A DNA stretch of 64,000 nt, from the NCBI GenBank assembly GCA_965200965.1, contig OZ241744.1, forward strand, positions 2,400,001 to 2,464,000. Direction: 5' to 3'. A program made the position numbers and the translations under genes. Positions 4,875-17,952 of the stretch are shown piece after piece. This DNA is from an uncultured Candidatus Binatia bacterium (GTDB lineage Bacteria > Desulfobacterota > Binatia > Bin18). The notes under the pieces were generated by a model, which was given only the letters and a program-made list of their open reading frames with translations, made no database searches and was not told where the DNA came from. Position 1 is the first letter of the stretch. Each line of letters begins with the position of its first letter.

Positions 4875-6430
4875 ATAGGCTGCTCCTTGCAAATCCTCCT
4901 GGAAGAAGCAAGCATGCCTGCATTATGAAATGGGAAGAATTCTCTCGGTGGTTTAATCGAGATTTTTGGAGAGCCTTCAAAAATAGTACTATCCCGATCA
5001 AAATTCCTCAAAAGCATGAGGACAAAGAGGCTAAAGTACGAGAGGTTTTCGAATCCGTACAGTCTTCCCGTTATGCCGTATCCATCCCTGAAACCGAGAT
5101 TGTGGATGACAAAGGGTATGGTGTCGCCCGCACTATTCCCGTTTTCTGCATCGAAGATTACATCGTTTATTACTTTTGTATAAAAGAACTCGAGGACATC
5201 ATTTCGGGGAACCATGCCGAGAACACCTTTGGGGGTTGGACACTTGGGGGAAAACTTCGGAGACAAGAAAATTGGGAGATTGAGAGCGATATGGGCTTCT
5301 CAGGCGCTCGCTATTCGTTCAATCCACGGGCTTGGACGGTGGCCTTCGGTGAATTCAATTCGCTCCTCTTCTCGCAACTTGAAACGGGCGCTTACACTCA
5401 CGTTTTACAGTTTGATCTCTCAAACTTTTATGACTGTATACGCCTCGACATTCTGGAACGGTTGATCCGAGAAGACAGCCAACCCGATAAAGGATGGATA
5501 ATCGCGCTCTTGTTCTACTTCCTCAATCAGTAGAACCGTCGAAACACGGGTCTTCACCCCCAAGGCGTCGGCATCCCCCAAGACGCTTTGGCCGATTGCT
5601 CACGTCTGCTGGCAAATTACTATCTCCAGAGATACGACAAGTTCGCCAATCGTATTTGCTCGGAAGTAGGCGCGAATTACTTTCGCTATGCTGACGATCA
5701 AATGCTCCTCCTCAACGACACAAAGCGCATTGAAGAATTGATGCTGCTACTCACTCGTAAGCTAGACCAGTACGGTTTGAGAGTGAACCAGAAGAAAGTT
5801 ATTCTGTGGAAGGTTGAGGACCTCAAACGGAACCGTTGCCAGGATATCCAATCGATTTTCGCAAAGCCGGGCGACAAAAAAGACCCAAAGCTCGTGCGTA
5901 GATTCGTTGAGGCCTATCTGAAGCTGTCCGACAAACAACTCGCGGATACCTGGAATGCAGGTTTGCCGCTCCTGAATCGCCTTCTCTGGGCAAAACTCGA
6001 ATCATTGCCCCCAAGGCCGTTCAATAGAATCCTCGCCCGCTACACTAAAGAACGCTATCTCCTCCAGGCGGATCAGAGCAAACTTGTCCGGGTACACGAA
6101 TTGAACCAGAGACGGAAGAGACCGCCCGATCTCGAACGGCGTCTCACCGATCTCGGCAGAGTGAAGGTCCATAACAGCTTTCACTATGAATGTCTGGGGT
6201 TCGCGCGCGCGACCAAAAACCGATCGCTGGAAAAGATTTTCTACAATCGCCTCAAAGAGATAAAAAAGTTGATGGAATCAAAACGCCTTTCGTCTTAGCT
6301 TTCCTGCCTCGCGTCAGGTCTGCCATTTGGATTTGATTATAGCAGGAGTATGCCCTTGAGCGTTTTTCGCTTGATGATATCCTCTCACGCAGGGCCTACA
6401 CCTGAGCAGGGAAGACATGGAGCAGCCTAT
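4875..6430. repeat. 12-bp inverted repeats flanking the RT gene
   Basis: ataggctgctcc at 4875..4886 and ggagcagcctat at 6419..6430. Confidence 0.7.
4925..6298 (+). pseudogene. UG/Abi-like reverse transcriptase with in-frame TAG at 5531..5533
   Basis: ORFs 4925..5533 and 5588..6298 share a frame; FDLSNFYD, GIPQD...SRLLANYYL, YFRYADD, GLRVNQKK RT motifs; lower GC than flanks. Confidence 0.9.
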
Positions 6431-9206: not shown

Positions 9207-9770
9207 ATGGCAAGTCTGTCCTATCTGTCTCCCAAGACTGCGGTCCGGGACAGCCCCATTCACGGCCGGGGGCTGTTTGCCGCCGAGCCGATCAGGAAAG
9301 GCGAAATTGTGGCCGTCAAGGGCGGCTCCATCTTTCGCCGGCAAACCCGCGACGCGCTGGAAAAAACCATAGGGGCGGCTGAGATTCCGATTGCTGAGGA
9401 TATGTATATCGGCCCGCTGTCGGCAGAAGAGCGCGAAGGCAGCATGATTTTCAGCAATCATTCATGTGAGCCGAACATTGGCGTCCAGGGCCAGATTATC
9501 TTTGTTGCCATGCGCGATGTTGCCGCGGGTGAGGAGCTGACCCACGACTGGGCTATGACCGACGACGAACCGGACACGCTGGAGTGCTGCTGTGGGGCGG
9601 CCAGCTGTCGCAGAATTGTCACCGGTCGGGACTGGCGGCGCAAAGACCTGCAAGACAAATACGCGGGCTATATGTCGTGGTATCTGCTTGAAAAGATCAA
9701 ACGCCAGGCCCGGAATGATGCAAGCCCTAAACCAAACGAAAGGAGAACGACAAATGAAGAAAGCAGGTGA
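9207..9770 (+). CDS. SET-domain protein with post-SET cysteines
   Basis: SPIHGRGLFA, NHSCEPN, GEELTHDW, CCCGAASCR. Confidence 0.9.
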   Translation: MASLSYLSPKTAVRDSPIHGRGLFAAEPIRKGEIVAVKGGSIFRRQTRDALEKTIGAAEIPIAEDMYIGPLSAEEREGSMIFSNHSCEPNIGVQGQIIFVAMRDVAAGEELTHDWAMTDDEPDTLECCCGAASCRRIVTGRDWRRKDLQDKYAGYMSWYLLEKIKRQARNDASPKPNERRTTNEESR

Positions 9771-10257
9771 AATGAAAGAGTATAGAAGGGGTGAACTTAT
9801 CCCAAAGGACAGTTTTGGGAAAGAAAGTGATTTATTGGAGGACCTCCGCGCTGCTTTTGGCGAGGATTATGTTCTTTCAGTCAGTGCAAAGAGAGATGTG
9901 GGGGTGTTTGACACCTTTATCATTACAGAAGGAGGACTTGTTCCAGTTGAATTAAAATTGGAGCACGAGGCCCTTACTCGGTTTTGCCTTCAAGACAATC
10001 AACGTCGTTTTGCTTGGCTTTGTCAAGAAAAAGGTGTTCCATACTTGGTGTTGAAGGGTAAGGCCAAAACACAAGAATGGATAATGTTCAACGTGGACCG
10101 ACGCCGTTGGGGTGAGGATGTCAAATTGGAAGAAGGCAAAACAAGAAAGAAGCTTCGTGAACGCCTGCATGACCTGTACACCATTGCCTATGAAGGAGTA
10201 TGGCAACGGAAGAAGGAAGAGTGGCAAGAAGAAATGAGGAAGACAAACGGACAATAA
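9754..10257 (+). CDS. Putative PD-(D/E)XK nuclease (VRR-NUC/resolvase-like)
   Basis: GVFDTFII..GLVPVELK..LQDNQRRF motif; AT-richer; upstream AGGAGA. Confidence 0.55.
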   Translation: MKKAGEMKEYRRGELIPKDSFGKESDLLEDLRAAFGEDYVLSVSAKRDVGVFDTFIITEGGLVPVELKLEHEALTRFCLQDNQRRFAWLCQEKGVPYLVLKGKAKTQEWIMFNVDRRRWGEDVKLEEGKTRKKLRERLHDLYTIAYEGVWQRKKEEWQEEMRKTNGQ

Positions 10258-11005
10258 AACTGAACAACCGACGAGGGAGGCAGGACTGCCCAAGATGGGA
10301 AAGGGTTAGGAGTATGAAGGGTTCAGCACAATCCTTCACCCTGGCGTTGCTGATACTTGGCATTTAGAGGGGCATAGCGGATTGATGTTTGACATATTTT
10401 CGCTATCATGTGGTGTAATAGTCCTGTAAGGTCTTCATACACAACACTGATGAACGCGCCATGCCGGTCAAGCAGAAGATGGAAGCCTACCCGGGAAACC
10501 CTCCCCCAATACTTGGCATTGCTGTTTGGCATTCACCCCATCTATGGCCTGGGGGGGTAAGGCTTGGGGACCCCCGCTAGACCGTGGACATGCTTAGGGC
10601 GGAAGCCGACCGGCTCCGGGCCAAACTCCGGGATTTTGCCGACGAGCTCATCAGCAAGGCCCACGCCCTGAAAGAGAGCCTGGAAGATGCAGCAACGGAA
10701 GAGTAAGCGGCTCAACGCGGCTCTCCGGCTTATCGTCCTGGCGCTGATGTTGCCGGGGGGTGTCTCGGTTCGGCAAAGCCGTATCGAGCCGGGTATGAAA
10801 AAGGCGGTCCTGACTGCCGAGCTTGGCCCGACTTTGTCAGAGGTGCAAAACCCGGATAGAACGACGACAGCAACCTTTGGCTTTCCCCGGACAGCCCAAA
10901 CAGTCAAGGTCATCTTTGACGCAAACGGGAATGTCCTATCGTTTCCCCTCACCCCTAGCCCCTAACCCCGGCTCCGGCTGGATTCAAGACAAGAGAGGAA
11001 AATCT

Positions 11006-12445
11006 ATGACTTGGCTAATGCTGGCTTTGATGCTGGCTTTGAGTAGTCCGTCCGCCTTTGGGCAGCTTCCGACGGGCTATTATTCTTCCTTCTATGCCAC
11101 AAGCAGCCCGTCACAACGCGTTAGGGAATATCTAGCTAGCGGAACGACTACCCCTTTCTCTGTCATTCACTACCGGCGCGGACCTGGAGACCTGGAAATC
11201 TTACGGCAAGACGTGCTGGAAGAACCGTTCTACGGCACAACTGAATATATGGAGTACATCAACAGCTTTGCCCCCTGCTCACGAACTTCTTGCCCAGACC
11301 CCCGCCCAGAAACCCATTGCCCTATTATGCGAGGAGGCGACCCGACAAACCCCTTCATGCCCTCCGGTGTGTATTATTGGGGCGGGCCAAAATGCACAGA
11401 ACGCCTTGACCCTGACGGGCGAAACTTGACGTTCATTGTATGTTCAGAGTTTCCAGAGCACGCCGGCATTCACCTGCATTGCAAAAAAGACATGAACCTG
11501 CCCATACAATGCAGCAAGCCATTCGATCGGTTGTGTGATCCATACCCGGAGCCCGAGCCGGTTATTCCGCCCGCCTTTGGGCGGCTTCCGACGGGCTATC
11601 ATGCTTCCTTCTATGCTACCAGCAGCCCATTCAAGTCTGTTCGGGATTACCTGAGCGGAGTAACATCAACTAAGCCGTCTTCCCGCACAATTGAAGCCGA
11701 GGCTAATGAACTCATTTACAGCCTTCACCCGGTTAGTCAGCACTATTCCGGCTGTGGCTACAAAGTAGTAGGAAAGCGACAAACCTTTCCTCATGGGGTG
11801 TATTATCTTTCTTGCCTTGGCGGATACATTGCCGGGATTTATTGCAGTGAATGGCCGGAGCACCAAGGCATTCACCTGCATTGCACTAACGATTTACACC
11901 TTACCCCGCGGCGCATTATCCCGGAATGCTCGGCTCGAACCTGCCCACCATGCGCGACAAGCAGATGCCCACCTGCCCAACCCTGCCCCGACACAAACCC
12001 AAACCGATACACGGCTGAACCCGTGGGCAACCTGGAGGTCCCTAGCGACGGCTCATTCCAGAGCGGGATAGGCTATGTGTCGGGATGGGTATGTGAAGGC
12101 CGTTCTGTCTCAATCGTTATTGACGGCGGTCTGCACCTTCCGCCGGTAGCCCGGAATATCGCCCGCGGTGATACCGAAGCCGTATGCGGAGACCAAGACA
12201 ACGGGTTCATCTTGCAATGGAACTATAACTTGATGGGGGATGGAACCTATACGGCCGCCCTTGTCGTAGACGGACAGACCCTTCAAGAAAACCGCTTCAC
12301 CGTTACCACGCTCGGCGAGGAGTTCATTAGAGGGCTAGAGCGGGATGTTGATGTAACGGATTTTCCAGCCCCCGGAGAGATTACCCGGTTCAGGTGGCAG
12401 GAAGCCGTGCAAGGTCTTGTCTTGGTTCCAGGCTCGACGGACTAA
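11006..12445 (+). CDS. Secreted Cys-rich protein, two tandem variable N-domains plus conserved C-terminal domain (paralog 1)
   Basis: Signal peptide MTWLMLALMLALSSPSAFG; internal repeat LPTGY..SFYATSSP / CSE.PEH.GIHLHC; C-domain GNLEVP..GSFQSGIG..SGWVC. Confidence 0.85.
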   Translation: MTWLMLALMLALSSPSAFGQLPTGYYSSFYATSSPSQRVREYLASGTTTPFSVIHYRRGPGDLEILRQDVLEEPFYGTTEYMEYINSFAPCSRTSCPDPRPETHCPIMRGGDPTNPFMPSGVYYWGGPKCTERLDPDGRNLTFIVCSEFPEHAGIHLHCKKDMNLPIQCSKPFDRLCDPYPEPEPVIPPAFGRLPTGYHASFYATSSPFKSVRDYLSGVTSTKPSSRTIEAEANELIYSLHPVSQHYSGCGYKVVGKRQTFPHGVYYLSCLGGYIAGIYCSEWPEHQGIHLHCTNDLHLTPRRIIPECSARTCPPCATSRCPPAQPCPDTNPNRYTAEPVGNLEVPSDGSFQSGIGYVSGWVCEGRSVSIVIDGGLHLPPVARNIARGDTEAVCGDQDNGFILQWNYNLMGDGTYTAALVVDGQTLQENRFTVTTLGEEFIRGLERDVDVTDFPAPGEITRFRWQEAVQGLVLVPGSTD

Positions 12446-12502
12446 GCCCAGCAACGGACAGCCCCGGCTCTGCCCAGCACGGCCGGGTTCAGCAAGGAAG
12501 GA

Positions 12503-13561
12503 ATGGGAATGAGGCAGATTTTTATCTTGATGGTGGTGTTGGCCTTGGCTAGTCCGGTCTTCGGACAGATGGCCAACACACCCCCGCCCTATGACATAAC
12601 CACGGCCGCGGCGGCAACGGGGCGGCCAGTATTGATATCACCTTCGGAGACTGCCCCAAGTGTGGGGAAACCCTACCGACAGAACCAGACTACATGGCGA
12701 CGAGCTTGGCAGGGCATACCCCCGCCCTATGACATAACCGCGGCCGCGGGCTATCGGGAATGGGCTATCCGTTCGACAGTGGCTTTATGCAAAGACCCCT
12801 CGGCACCCAGTGGCCTAATTAGTCCCCCCTGGCTCTCTCCAGTAGATGACCTGTCCGACGCAAGGTTTATTTGGGAATTTGTCCACCAAAACGCAGGCTA
12901 TACCTTGCTGACTAGTTGCGGCGGCACCCTCTTTGTATGCAACACACAGCCCCCATACGGGGATGTCGCGGCGCTGGCGACTGCAATCGAAAGGCCGGGC
13001 TTTTCATGCGCTGACTATGGCTTGCCACCTACCGGCGCGACGGTGAACCGCGCGGCCCTCCCCGCTGGCTATAACCAGTATGGCGAGCCGGGGGCAGAGC
13101 CTGAACCCGAAACCCCACAAGAACCCGTGGGCAATCTCGAGGTGCCTGCTAACGGCTCATTCCAGAGCGGCATAGGGTATATCTCCGGCTGGGTATGCAA
13201 CGGGCGTGTGGAAATAGTCCTGAGCGACTATTCCTATAACGATGTTCAACGCCTTAATTCGGTGCCCCGTTGGGTGTACCGCGGCGATACCGAAGCCGCA
13301 TGCGGCGATATCGACAACGGGTTCATTACGCAATGGAACTGGAACCTGCTTGGGGAAGGGCAACACACCGCGCGGCTTGTCGTAGACGGACAGACCATTC
13401 AGAGCAACACGTTCACCGTTACCACGCTCGGCGAGGAGTTTGTCCGCGGTGTTGAGCGGGATGTAGTGGTGAATGATTTTCCTAGCCCCGGAGAGACTAC
13501 CCGGCTCCGGTGGCAAGAACCCGTGCAAGGCTTTGTCTTGGTTCCAGGCTCGACGGACTAA
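12503..13561 (+). CDS. Secreted protein with conserved C-terminal domain (paralog 2)
   Basis: Signal peptide ..LALASPVFG; repeated PPPYDIT; C-domain 13121..13561 homologous to paralog 1. Confidence 0.85.
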   Translation: MGMRQIFILMVVLALASPVFGQMANTPPPYDITTAAAATGRPVLISPSETAPSVGKPYRQNQTTWRRAWQGIPPPYDITAAAGYREWAIRSTVALCKDPSAPSGLISPPWLSPVDDLSDARFIWEFVHQNAGYTLLTSCGGTLFVCNTQPPYGDVAALATAIERPGFSCADYGLPPTGATVNRAALPAGYNQYGEPGAEPEPETPQEPVGNLEVPANGSFQSGIGYISGWVCNGRVEIVLSDYSYNDVQRLNSVPRWVYRGDTEAACGDIDNGFITQWNWNLLGEGQHTARLVVDGQTIQSNTFTVTTLGEEFVRGVERDVVVNDFPSPGETTRLRWQEPVQGFVLVPGSTD

Positions 13562-13688
13562 CGGATAGCCCAGCAAAAGCCGCCCACGTTGCCCTAGGAC
13601 GGGCGAAAAGCCTTCACCCCTAGCCTTACCCCTACCCTATTGTTTCTTACCCGGGGTAGGGCTAGGGCAAACAAGCAAGGAGGCTCGC

Positions 13689-13889
13689 ATGCCTATCAAG
13701 AAAAAGAAGACCCTCAACTTTGACGTGTCGGCCGACATAATCAACACCATCAAGCACATGGCAGTTGACCGGGAAACCAACGCCGCAACGTTGTATCGGC
13801 AGGCATTGCAAGAGTTCATAGAACGGCATAACCCCGGCGCTTTGAGCAAGCCACGGGGAAAGAAGGCGGCCGAAAGGGCGGCCGAGTAG
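13689..13889 (+). CDS. Ribbon-helix-helix (CopG/ParG-like) DNA-binding protein
   Basis: KTLNFDVS..IINTIKHMA..ATLYRQALQEFIE strand-helix-helix pattern; AAGGAGG RBS. Confidence 0.7.
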   Translation: MPIKKKKTLNFDVSADIINTIKHMAVDRETNAATLYRQALQEFIERHNPGALSKPRGKKAAERAAE

Positions 13890-13920
13890 GCAGGAACTCG
13901 CCCGGCCGTAAGGAAGACTG

Positions 13921-14343
13921 ATGAAGAAGGCCCTGATACTAGCCCTCGTCGGCTTAGCGACCAGATGCTCGGTTCAGAAGCCCCCGCTCACATATGAGAG
14001 CGTAACCCGCCCAGAGCTCGCGGAGCTTCGGAATCAGTCTCACGCGCCCTTATCCCCGGAATACACCAAGGCGGCCCGTGCCTATGAGCGAGAGCGGAGG
14101 GACGGGGAAGAAGCAGAACGGGCGGCAGGTTGGCCAAGGCTTACCCATGAAACGCTTGAACAAGCCTTCCAGGATGCAGAACAGAAGGCACAAGCACAGA
14201 AGCCTGAAATGGAACGGCAGAAGAAATGCGCGGATGCTTGGCAACGGGCTTACAGCCCTAACGCCCTAAGAATGCACACCGAAGCCGCTATGCGAAGCCG
14301 CATTCACTCCGGGCGATATTGGGTTCAGCATTGTCTCGACTAA
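13921..14343 (+). CDS. Hypothetical exported protein/lipoprotein
   Basis: MKKALILALVGLATRC signal; AAGGAAG RBS. Confidence 0.6.
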   Translation: MKKALILALVGLATRCSVQKPPLTYESVTRPELAELRNQSHAPLSPEYTKAARAYERERRDGEEAERAAGWPRLTHETLEQAFQDAEQKAQAQKPEMERQKKCADAWQRAYSPNALRMHTEAAMRSRIHSGRYWVQHCLD

Positions 14344-14393
14344 CCCCACTACCCCGGCTCCGGTCTGAGCCGGGTTCAGCAAGAGGAAACGGA

Positions 14394-14795
14394 ATGCACA
14401 AAACCATCTACCCCTTAGCCGCGGCCGTAGCGTTCAGCTTGGCAGGATGCGCTACCATCTTCACAGGAACGACAGAGACGATATCAATCAACACGGAACC
14501 GCCTGGGGCAAAGGTTGAGTTTTCGCATGGTGGAACCTGTATCACCCCATGCAACGAATCAGTCAAGAAGAAGGGCGACATTCAACTGACTATCAGAAAG
14601 GAAGGATGCCGCACTCATACAACGACGATGATTTCAACGCTTGGTACTATGGGCGGTGTTTCCCCGATGCTTACCCTTACGGGCGGGCTGATTGATTACA
14701 GCACGGGCGCTGTTTACGAGCACAAGCCTAACCCGCTCTTTGTTCACCTTGACTGCGAGCCGCCCGCGGCTTCGGCTTCCGGCTCGGAGGAGTAA
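14394..14795 (+). CDS. PEGA-like lipoprotein
   Basis: Lipobox LAGC; CATIFTGTT..I.INTEPPGAKV..C.TPC; GLIDYSTGA.Y..PNP. Confidence 0.75.
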   Translation: MHKTIYPLAAAVAFSLAGCATIFTGTTETISINTEPPGAKVEFSHGGTCITPCNESVKKKGDIQLTIRKEGCRTHTTTMISTLGTMGGVSPMLTLTGGLIDYSTGAVYEHKPNPLFVHLDCEPPAASASGSEE

Positions 14796-14798
14796 AGA

Positions 14799-15671
14799 AT
14801 GGCCCGGTTCTTTTCACTGGCTATCACCCTTTTTCTTTTCACCACCGCAACGGCCCAGGAATATGACCCATCAACACCGGAAGGCTACCGCGAGCATATA
14901 CGCCGTGCCTTTGCTCATTTTTGCACCGCCGGATGGGACTTTTTCGACGGCACGGAGATCCCTCTCTCTCCCATTCTTACCGTGTTTGAACCGGAATACA
15001 AATGGGAACTTGTATGGGAAAGCACCCCAAGTCAGGGCTTGGTGTTGGTGTCTGACTGTTTCAGGTCCTCCGATATCTGTTTTTCAGAGGAGGAAGCCTT
15101 TGGTTTTGGTGGTGGTAATCCGGGTAATACAGGAACGGCGAGAGACACGCACACCTGCCGCGAGCTCGACCTTCCGCCCCAAAGCGCAAACCTTACTCCC
15201 CCCGCTGGTTATAGCTACTGGGGGGAACTGCCGGGAACTTTCACCACCCCAGAACCAACCGGAAACCTTGAAGTGCCTGGCAATGGTTCCTTCCAGAGCG
15301 GGATAGGCTTCATGTCCGGCTGGGTATGCGACGGGCGGAATGTGGAAATAGTCCTGAATGGCGGTGCTCAACGCCTTTCGGTATCCCGTGGGGTGAACCG
15401 AGGTGATACCGCGGCCGCATGCGGCGATACCGACAACGGCTTTATCACCCTCTGGAACTGGAACTTGCTTGGGGAAGGGCAACACACCGCGGCGCTTGTG
15501 GTAGACGGACAAACCATTCAGAGCAACACCTTCACCATTACCACCTTGGGCGAGGAGTTCATCAGAGGGCTAGAGCGGGATGTTGTGGTGAATGACTTTC
15601 CAGCCCCCGGAGAGACTACCCGGTTCAGGTGGCAGGAATCCGTGCAGGGGCTTGTCCTGGTTCCAGACTAA
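14799..15671 (+). CDS. Secreted protein with conserved C-terminal domain (paralog 3)
   Basis: Signal peptide ..FLFTTATAQ; C-domain 15252..15671 homologous to paralogs 1 and 2. Confidence 0.85.
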   Translation: MARFFSLAITLFLFTTATAQEYDPSTPEGYREHIRRAFAHFCTAGWDFFDGTEIPLSPILTVFEPEYKWELVWESTPSQGLVLVSDCFRSSDICFSEEEAFGFGGGNPGNTGTARDTHTCRELDLPPQSANLTPPAGYSYWGELPGTFTTPEPTGNLEVPGNGSFQSGIGFMSGWVCDGRNVEIVLNGGAQRLSVSRGVNRGDTAAACGDTDNGFITLWNWNLLGEGQHTAALVVDGQTIQSNTFTITTLGEEFIRGLERDVVVNDFPAPGETTRFRWQESVQGLVLVPD

Positions 15672-16366: not shown

Positions 16367-16478
16367 GTAGAGCACCCGTGTAAGGATGTTCTTTCCTTGT
16401 GATGTTTTTTCATTTTGGCCGGCACTTACGCACGGCAACCTGTAGAGCATCCGTGTAAGGACATTCTTTCATTGTGAT
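16367..16478 (+). repeat. Two 37-bp direct repeats separated by 38 bp
   Basis: gtagagca(c/t)ccgtgtaagga(tg/ca)ttctttc(c/a)ttgtgat at 16367..16403 and 16442..16478 (33/37 identical). Confidence 0.9.
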
Positions 16479-16509
16479 AGCCTCGGCCTTCCCGGCCGGG
16501 GCTATTTTT
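16477..16509 (+). terminator. Intrinsic terminator
   Basis: atagcctcggcc-ttccc-ggccggggctat followed by a T run. Confidence 0.75.
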
Positions 16510-16555
16510 ATGGCGAAAATCCTGCTAGTTGGCCGGGTTAGACGCCGAGGAGGGC

Positions 16556-16652
16556 AAAAAAAGCCGCCGGGGAATCCATGCTAGGAAAACCCGGCGGCCT
16601 AACCCCTACTCTTACCCTAACCAAGAAAGGGTTTGTTCAAAAGGAACGAACA
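16556..16652 (-). ncRNA. Putative antisense (countertranscript-like) RNA 1
   Basis: Minus-strand TTGACA(16687-82)-N17-TATCCT(16664-59); terminator stem 16563..16598 followed by T7. Confidence 0.65.
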
Positions 16653-16709
16653 ATGAGTAGGATATCCCACTCTCAGACCGCTGTCAACACCGAAGCCCAG
16701 AGAGGGCAT

Positions 16710-16794
16710 AAAAAAAGCCGCCGGGCTGAACTTGTCAGAAAGCCCGACGGCCTAACCCCTACTCTTACCCTAACCAAGAAAGGGTTTGCGTTGT
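16710..16794 (-). ncRNA. Putative antisense RNA 2
   Basis: TTGACA(16829-24)-N17-TATCCT(16806-01); terminator stem 16717..16751 followed by T7. Confidence 0.65.
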
Positions 16795-16851
16795 ATGAGC
16801 AGGATATCCCACTCTCAGACCGCTGTCAACACCGAAGCCCGGAGAGGGCAT

Positions 16852-16945
16852 AAAAAAAGCCGCCGGGAAACCCTGCGAGGAACCCGACGGCTTAGAACCC
16901 TTACCCGTACCAAAGGAGAAAGGGTTTGTTCGAAAGGAACGAACA
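16852..16945 (-). ncRNA. Putative antisense RNA 3, covering the leader/RBS of the HTH gene
   Basis: TTGACA(16980-75)-N17-TATGAG(16957-52); terminator stem 16859..16891 followed by T7. Confidence 0.6.
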
Positions 16946-17404
16946 ATGAGCCTCATAACCAACTCTGCCCACACTGTCAATACCGACGCCCAACCCTTCC
17001 AGCCCGACGAGTACATCCCCGGCTATGCCAGTAACCTATTACGCCGGTCAGAGTATTTCTTTGCTCTCGGGGTGCTGACAACGGGTTCAGCCTCGTTCTT
17101 TCCTGGCCGGGCCAAGCTGGCCAAGGGCTTGGGGTGTTGTGAGCGGACAGTCAGCCGCGACGTGACACGCCTGGAAGCCCTCGGCTACTACCGACGAGGG
17201 GGGCAAGACTGCCCCCGGTTTGGAGAGTTTGGCGGGATGCTCATTCTACCCGGGCCGAAAATGTGGGGGCTGATACGGGATACGGTGGCGGCGCTCATAG
17301 ACCGGGGAGGCTTCCGAAAAAGCCCGAAAAATAGCGGCTCCGGCCGAGGGACACGCAAAGCCCACTATCCCCATCTTTATACAAAGATGGTTAGGAAGAT
17401 ATAG
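16946..17404 (+). CDS. HTH protein, replication-initiator-like N-terminus (possibly truncated)
   Basis: FFPGRAKLAKGLGCCERTVSRDVTRLEALGY resembles the HTH_36-type winged HTH of phage/plasmid Rep proteins. Confidence 0.65.
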   Translation: MSLITNSAHTVNTDAQPFQPDEYIPGYASNLLRRSEYFFALGVLTTGSASFFPGRAKLAKGLGCCERTVSRDVTRLEALGYYRRGGQDCPRFGEFGGMLILPGPKMWGLIRDTVAALIDRGGFRKSPKNSGSGRGTRKAHYPHLYTKMVRKI

Positions 17405-17494: not shown

Positions 17495-17952
17495 AAGGAA
17501 ATATCGCTGTCTTCATAGCCAGGAAACCGCTATCCTGAATAGGGCTCGCCGAGAACCTCTGAGACGGTGAATTTCTCGTAGTGGTTTTCGAGCTTCACCC
17601 GCACTGTGCGACTGCGGTATGAGGACCGGATTTTGAGTCGCCCAATACAATCCTCAAGCTCCTCTGTCAATTCAACCTTGTAGCGGTCTGCAAAGCGGGC
17701 CGTAACCCGGAATATCCCCCCGAACAGCCAGATGTCTTCCTCATGGTAGAACCGCATGAGCGAGAAAATACAGGGGCGATTGAATTGATCCCGTTCGGGT
17801 CGGGATTCTTGCCATTTGATCCATTTCGCCCGGTCCTCTACCCAATCGTCCAGCGGCTCTACCTTACGACCGCGAGGATTGCGGCGCGCGAAGTGGACCT
17901 TGTAATTCTCCGGGTTGTGACAAGGCCAGATTTCCTTGAGAAGATTCGCCAT
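17495..17952 (-). pseudogene. N-terminal part of a GIY-YIG-family nuclease gene, nonsense-mutated and truncated
   Basis: YKVHFAR..FNRPCIFSLM..WLFGGIF..IGRLKI; after TAG at 17530 the frame continues RFPGYED.DISF, then changes character. Confidence 0.6.

Follow-up and report, generated by a model that had tools for sequence, protein, structure and literature searches.

The analysed window, a 64,000-nucleotide stretch of genome G000 (one contig, 3.62 Mb), carries three tandem units of about 145 bp in front of a gene for a small winged-helix protein. We propose, with a probability of about one half, that these units are countertranscript cassettes of a likely initiator gene, and that the array arose when the leader was duplicated once and its units then exchanged content with related replicons. 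In textbook systems, replication and incompatibility are controlled by countertranscripts present as a single copy. The DNA records that hold the stretch are sponge metagenomes, and the carrier would be a small mobile element of sponge Binatia.

The units occupy positions 16550-16699, 16700-16841 and 16842-16992, with a start-to-start spacing of 142-154 nt, in line with the three tandem units of about 150 bp reported in the initial annotation, and their identity of 67-82% across the predicted RNA excludes chance. All three minus-strand TTGACA-N17 promoters that had been claimed are present, at 16659..16687 (TATCCT, within a 15-codon stub, MSRISHSQTAVNTEA), 16801..16829 (TATCCT) and 16952..16980 (TATGAG, without a T at -7 and inside codons 3-12 of the HTH gene). 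Their -35 boxes lie at 16687-16682, 16829-16824 and 16980-16975, and each -10 box starts 6 nt past the A of an ATG on the plus strand, so that every promoter falls in codons 3-12 of its own ATG; a consensus promoter scan scored units 1 and 2 only. Taking the base that precedes the ATG as +1, the predicted minus-strand countertranscripts measure 97 nt (16556..16652), 85 nt (16710..16794) and 94 nt (16852..16945), which agrees with the RNAs of 85-97 nt that were said to cover the leader and ribosome-binding site (RBS). Countertranscript 1 ends in a terminator with a C-family loop and combines an RBS-complementary 5' hairpin common to unit 3 with a middle hairpin common to unit 2. Countertranscript 2 carries a B-family loop and is 93% identical to the first unit of the copy at a second locus of this genome, L001, while countertranscript 3 is cognate to the RBS of the HTH gene. 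The terminators consist of a GC-rich hairpin and a U-run; the stems and U-runs are as originally described, and the ctga/tcag apex given for unit 2 was not recovered, RNAfold lengthening the stem instead. As had also been noted, only unit 3 runs on into the 152-aa HTH open reading frame (16946-17404). Upstream, the plus-strand left flank of the first unit (16524..16549) is conserved at all three loci of G000 and holds microhomology matching the unit junctions, and a terminator-like hairpin with a T-run (16485..16510, plus strand), comparable to one that precedes the L001 copy, would shield the leader from upstream read-through. A 37-bp direct repeat (16367-16403 and 16442-16478; 89% identical, 75-bp spacing) was also observed upstream of the array; it is missing at the other two loci and possibly represents protein-binding sites.

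All six units in G000 folded better on the minus strand, by 5-12 kcal/mol, and the minus-strand folding z-scores of window units 1, 2 and 3 were -4.1, -3.6 and -4.9. In four of the six, the terminator stem contains a U-G pair whose plus-strand counterpart is mismatched. Among the six units, mean pairwise identity was 100% for the -35 box and the U-run and 94/96% for the stem arms, and it was 61% for the -10 box, 59% for the spacer, 43% for the 5' RNA and 42% for the apex. TTGACA-N17-TA is the enriched spacing in this genome (85 sites; eight other spacings gave 37-64), and the most frequent base at -7 is T (32 of the 85 sites); the upstream TATCCT boxes fit this host consensus better than the cognate boxes, which lack the -7 T and read TATGAG, or TGTGAG in two loci. 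The upstream box itself loses the -7 T in three samples, the final T of the unit 2 box being a G (TATCCG) in runs X8, X9/X11 and X12. At the sequence level, the rep leader is thus opposed by a promoter and an intrinsic terminator of the unit's own, with a cognate -10 box that lacks the -7 T. The predicted RNAs of the units measure 82-116 nt and form 2-4 hairpins. Regarding the structure-preserving loop variation that had been described, the stems were kept (94-96%). Covariation was weak, with double changes in 3 of 24 pairs, a value equalled in 74 of 500 shuffles. A covariance-model check had also been suggested: model R1 scored strongly on its six training units only, and its weak hits in seven of the 55 other genomes of the order were terminator-driven, six coming from an unrelated sRNA. 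No Rfam family reached its gathering score (best E in the window, 0.88), and sub-threshold matches to Thr_leader occurred in a single locus of G152, a genome from another genus of the same Binatia family. A two-state switch of the RBS under control of the upstream flank was not supported, as the accessibility of the Shine-Dalgarno sequence was unchanged, and a C4-like element or attenuator was discarded, there being no Rfam match and no sense-strand terminator. The folding asymmetry, the conservation of the -35 box and stem and the layout in G152 described below support the countertranscript reading of the initial annotation, and the sum of the sequence evidence supports the interpretation of these units as countertranscripts.

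An assembly of strain variants had been named as an alternative source of the array. We compared 8 of the 15 listed runs, all as contigs; X1 is possibly the source sample, and X9 and X11 represent one sample. In X7, a run of another study, a 219-nt contig spans the loop of unit 1 into unit 2, contigs of X1 and X3 bridge units 2 and 3, and X5 contains a stub followed by a B-type loop. With the unit junctions crossed by contigs of X7, X1 and X3, an assembly chimera is unlikely; the array is real.

The number of units, which had been put forward as a point to check, proved variable, with one, two or three units observed among the copies of G000 and in other sponge samples and a maximum of three. 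At L001, a two-unit copy adjoining tRNA genes precedes a gene of 149 aa, and at L002 a one-unit copy precedes a frameshifted gene. The L001 locus has one unit only in X8 and X9/X11, with a skip of 137 bases and 16 ambiguous bases. In other records, the predicted read-through peptides P0006 and P0038 read as two-unit arrays, and P0039 and P0040 are of the three-unit type. The P0038 array, whose two C-family loops are near-identical, lies on a 14,174-bp contig, and in run X12 a contig of 7,460 bp bears two units, the first of which differs from that of L001. The X12 contig has the same length as that of the full-length Rep P0002, and the P0038 contig the same length as that of P0010, a match of length only; if these contigs are the same, arrays accompany intact genes too. 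Some additional features were seen at the borders of the copies. In X9/X11 at L001 8840-8847, about 87-93 unaligned bases, possibly a further divergent or partial unit, lie between the flank and the B unit, and X8 likewise has unaligned bases of this possible kind at window 16543-16710. The one-unit copy at L002 (8780-9008) begins abruptly within a gene fragment in every run compared; we take this fragment to be part of a DNA methyltransferase gene from the look of its motifs.

The gene downstream of unit 3 (16946..17404, plus strand) encodes a winged-helix, Rep-like protein of 152 aa that is shorter at the C terminus, by about 35 residues, than its relatives of 186-189 aa; the model of the 186-aa form shows a winged helix and a disordered tail. 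The top PDB matches of the protein are MarR regulators, its viral matches mix HTH and initiator proteins, and a Pfam HTH_36 match fell below the cut-off. Among 13 family members, 7 match phrog_8102 and 4 match phrog_428, both annotated as replication initiation protein, with weak scores (best E 2.5e-6). One of the G152 copies has an excisionase-like gene upstream of it, and a second lies about 1.7 kb from a dif-like site. The HTH gene is a likely candidate replication initiator. Two of the chromosomal copies in G000 show 5 synonymous and 10 non-synonymous codon differences over their first 110 codons, with no clear purifying selection, which counts against the proposed role. Near its 3' end, an AT-rich palindromic stretch (window 17345-17400) follows an RGT-x-SH/AH motif shared by several family members, and by analogy this stretch is possibly an origin inside the gene.

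A profile search retrieved 20 relatives of the window protein. The distant members P0020, P0022, P0025 and P0026 have bodies that are only 27-46% identical, yet they keep M-x9-VNT at a fixed spacing. GTC-AAC, which encodes VN, spells the antisense -35 box, so the fixed spacing in distant homologs is what a -35 box encoded in this way would impose. Three more distant homologs were found in G152 (profile-profile probability, 98.9%), and all three have a minus-strand terminator, a second hairpin and -35/-10 boxes, with predicted RNAs of 81-85 nt; these copies are 85% alike and count as one lineage and one independent case, and strand asymmetry in folding was seen in 1 of the 3. At L158 8100-11000 in the same genome, two Rep-like modules 2.2 kb apart each carry a single antisense cassette, with differing terminator loops, and one of them follows an excisionase-like gene.

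Wider searches placed the family in few genomes. The DNA of the array was found among 41 genomes in G000 only, apart from one 30-bp match elsewhere. Protein profiles matched 14 and 21 of 401 genomes of the class, strongly only in G000, G152 and G233, the G233 match being a leaderless fragment. None of 85 pattern matches in metagenome contigs and none of 37 in genome contigs was a relative of the window protein, and viral contigs yielded none either, the lone match there (L160) being spurious; tblastn searches of plasmids and phages returned no matches to the window protein, and the DNA patterns gave 0 matches in viral sequences. The 119 loci with the terminator pattern in metagenomes were set aside as generic, as 2 of 121 matches had a downstream TGTCAA and none was array-like beyond the hairpin. 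A separate observation concerns a conserved intergenic small-RNA candidate at L200 1501-1614 (G000:2537823-2537936), which also occurs at L204, L205, L206, L207, L209 and L210 and thus in 7 genomes of the order. It has a promoter-like -10 box, a CTCCCC motif and a terminator loop, CCCTCCTT, that resembles an anti-Shine-Dalgarno sequence, and none of the five loci scanned matched Rfam at E<=0.1.

To trace the origin of the array, we compared the unit junctions and contents. The three junctions examined all fall at the same point just past the -35 box, where a run of 5-8 bases in codons 14-16 is similar to the flank that precedes the first unit. Because all of the junctions are identical and share this microhomology, one illegitimate duplication of the leader is indicated, and the array likely began in this way. 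The contents were likely swapped after the duplication. Unit 1 is a mosaic, matching unit 2 in the middle hairpin (37/37) and promoter (28/29) and unit 3 in the 5' tail (16/17), and its loop belongs to the C family of unit 3. In addition, the stubs match the N terminus of P0020 at 11/13 and 12/13 residues, compared with 4-8/13 for unrelated pairs, while the whole P0020 protein is 38% identical to the window Rep family, and no close relative of P0020 was found. P0022 and P0025 similarly share 11/13 N-terminal residues with bodies 33% identical, and P0020 and P0025 share the residues after VNT and not those before it. From this comparison, which covers protein N termini only, leaders seem to be exchanged between Rep lineages through crossover at the -35 box. 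The initial annotation had proposed a record of serial replicon-leader capture; the exchange of leaders between lineages agrees with that proposal, whereas serial insertion does not, every junction being the same.

We therefore consider a model in which microhomology between the left flank and codons 14-16 would have mediated the duplication, recombination in the stretch from the conserved terminator stem to the -35 box would have replaced the contents of units, and unequal crossover would have yielded one to three units. In this model, the RNA of unit 3 would directly repress translation of the adjacent HTH gene, and the upstream units, whose promoters are better than that of the cognate unit, would repress the resident gene further and, as a by-effect, extend incompatibility to replicons carrying B-type or S-type leaders. 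The anatomy of the units, their varying number and their mosaicism were seen directly in the sequences; that the units are transcribed, that the gene is an initiator, and that repression and exclusion take place are predictions. The predicted binding energies of cognate RNA-leader pairs ranged from -109 to -147 kcal/mol. RNA 1 was predicted to bind leader 3 at -52 kcal/mol, with a perfect run of 15 nt in the RBS region, and since units 1 and 3 have a common RBS-binding tail, RNA 1 would back up repression of the resident gene. RNA 2 was predicted to bind weakly to leader 3 (-29 kcal/mol) and at -93 kcal/mol to the B leader of L001, and it would therefore address a different class of leader; for the L002 RNA on other leaders, the predicted values were only -8 to -13 kcal/mol. 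The earlier suggestion that the terminator loops set specificity is not secure, as units 1 and 3 share one loop family and are predicted to cross-react. The 5' bodies of the units differ as much as the loops, and no more than three loop families were observed, with variation of 1-2 bases inside the C family.

The array forms the end of an island of about 7.7 kb whose GC content is lower. Its cargo (10687..15671, plus strand) comprises three predicted secreted proteins, a PEGA protein and small ORFs, including a 66-aa ORF at 13689 with no Pfam or PHROG match. The three predicted secreted proteins (window 10883-15671) share a C-terminal domain of about 135 aa. This domain has no Pfam match and Atlas neighbours that are partly Ig-like Big_7, and it was found by tblastn at more than 40 places in G000, many of them in low-GC islands that have a hairpin motif in common downstream. 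At the left edge of the island lies a low-GC nuclease-like ORF (9754-10257), and at the right edge a truncated ORF (17533-17946), neither with Pfam or PHROG support. There is no tRNA in the window, and no dif-like site was found around the island; at other copies, L001 adjoins tRNA genes and one G152 homolog is near dif. Dif-like sites were observed at the GC-skew maximum at L006 ~5790-5821 (G000:874.8 kb) and L157 8519-8550. Island remnants lie beside the dif-like site in both genomes, that of G152 with a Rep-like gene and a leader, an arrangement suggestive of Xer-mediated integration in some relatives. Near the dif-like site at L006 and L157, we also noted a palindrome, TTGACTATAGTCAA, which with close variants occurs about three times per genome upstream of a cytochrome-like cluster and is likely the site of a regulator.

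An alternative explanation, which we consider rather unlikely, is that the array is neutral debris, in which a cassette that was once a countertranscript was duplicated by slippage in decaying integrated elements, the extra units having lost any importance. Several observations fit this view. The three chromosomal Rep copies of G000 are all truncated or frameshifted. No integrase and no 10-bp flanking direct repeat were found around the island. A unit is absent in some strains via a 16-nt repeat, conversion homogenises units, and the -10 base of unit 2 drifts. However, the two-unit arrays on contigs of 7,460 bp and 14,174 bp (P0038) share the sizes of the full-length-Rep contigs of P0002 and P0010, a match of length only, and the distal B unit is more similar between two loci (133/145) than the proximal units are (121/155), its differences sparing both promoter boxes and the terminator hairpin.

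Another explanation, which we consider unlikely as well, is a selected exclusion array, in which collected countertranscripts would silence the rep genes of competitors in trans while the resident rep answers to only one unit, giving one-way incompatibility. The match of the stub to the distant Rep lineage of P0020, the strong cognate and weak RNA 2-leader 3 and L002 RNA binding predicted above, the upstream promoters nearer to the host consensus and the recurrence of arrays in samples of several studies speak in favour of such an array. On the other hand, there are only three loop families, P0038 carries two near-identical C-family loops, and the maximum is three units. No orphan array away from Rep was found in G000 or in the 55 other genomes of the order. 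In addition, one promoter box drifts and the window Rep is truncated, which speaks against a library of specificities, and no free B-type replicon was found. In an extended form of the idea, equally improbable, the -35 box and the terminator stem would play the part of fixed "repeats" and the body of the RNA that of a "spacer" that varies, in an expandable array fed by recombination from competing replicons that the host kept after the decay of Rep as a protein-free, sequence-programmed, one-way exclusion. Such a dedicated exclusion library is possible and is not our leading reading. A third explanation, that the HTH protein is a transcription regulator or that the units are type I toxin-antitoxin repeats unrelated to replication, agrees with the MarR-family proteins among the top structural matches and with the tandem antisense repeats with variable loops of type I systems, but it is highly improbable because there is no short hydrophobic ORF opposite the RNAs, three-frame translations of the units contain no conserved hydrophobic toxin peptide, the frames after the stubs differ among copies, the family profile matches are replication initiators, and the G152 copies follow an excisionase-like gene, with one near a dif-like site.

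Under the preferred reading of duplicated and swapped countertranscript cassettes, the natural series of one, two and three cassettes, the mosaic units and the leaders swapped between Reps of about 35% identity show how the specificity of incompatibility may be reshuffled in modules that have the -35 box as their boundary. Should the upstream RNAs work in trans, the 145-bp cassette would provide a minimal form of defence against related elements; should they be silent, the locus would still be a clear record of how replicon leaders recombined in an uncultured symbiont of sponges.

In E. coli, Sib/Ibs and Ldr/Rdl likewise form tandem series of antisense-RNA units in which the stems are constant and other regions vary. 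Each of those units has its own toxin ORF, whereas a single downstream gene is common to the window units, none of which has a toxin-like ORF. Phage and satellite HTH initiators (phrog_8102, phrog_428, phrog_270; RepL-like) resemble the Rep-like protein in their N-terminal winged helix, small size and, in G152, excisionase-like neighbour, but the matches are weak (best E 2.4e-7) and the window island has no helicase, primase, integrase or packaging genes. No tandem countertranscript array appeared among the papers listed in our open-access literature searches. According to PMC4485353, RNAII of pMV158 is, like the units, a small countertranscript directly upstream of the rep start with a GC-rich intrinsic terminator, and it is reported to inhibit rep translation and cause incompatibility; the loop is described there as secondary, and changes in the 5' tail would create new incompatibility groups. 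RNAII is 48 nt long, with one hairpin and one copy per replicon, and belongs to the copG-repB operon of a rolling-circle plasmid, whereas the RNAs here are longer, with more hairpins and up to three in tandem, and the protein is a small winged helix; it has no HUH Rep_2 Pfam match, and no ORF lies directly upstream of the array. The repABC/repC ctRNA (PMC10194956, PMC3155836) is also encoded upstream of the initiator gene, acts as an incompatibility determinant in trans and belongs to replicons with an origin inside the initiator gene, and incompatibility is treated in PMC5703833 as well. That ctRNA is a single RNA of 55-59 nt that induces termination (PMC10194956, PMC3155836), whereas no sense-strand terminator precedes the ATG here; no repA or repB was found upstream, and the window protein had no RP-C match, the only such match being to one G152 homolog (E 0.047). 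By analogy, the units would work like pMV158 RNAII or the repABC ctRNA while belonging to neither replicon family.
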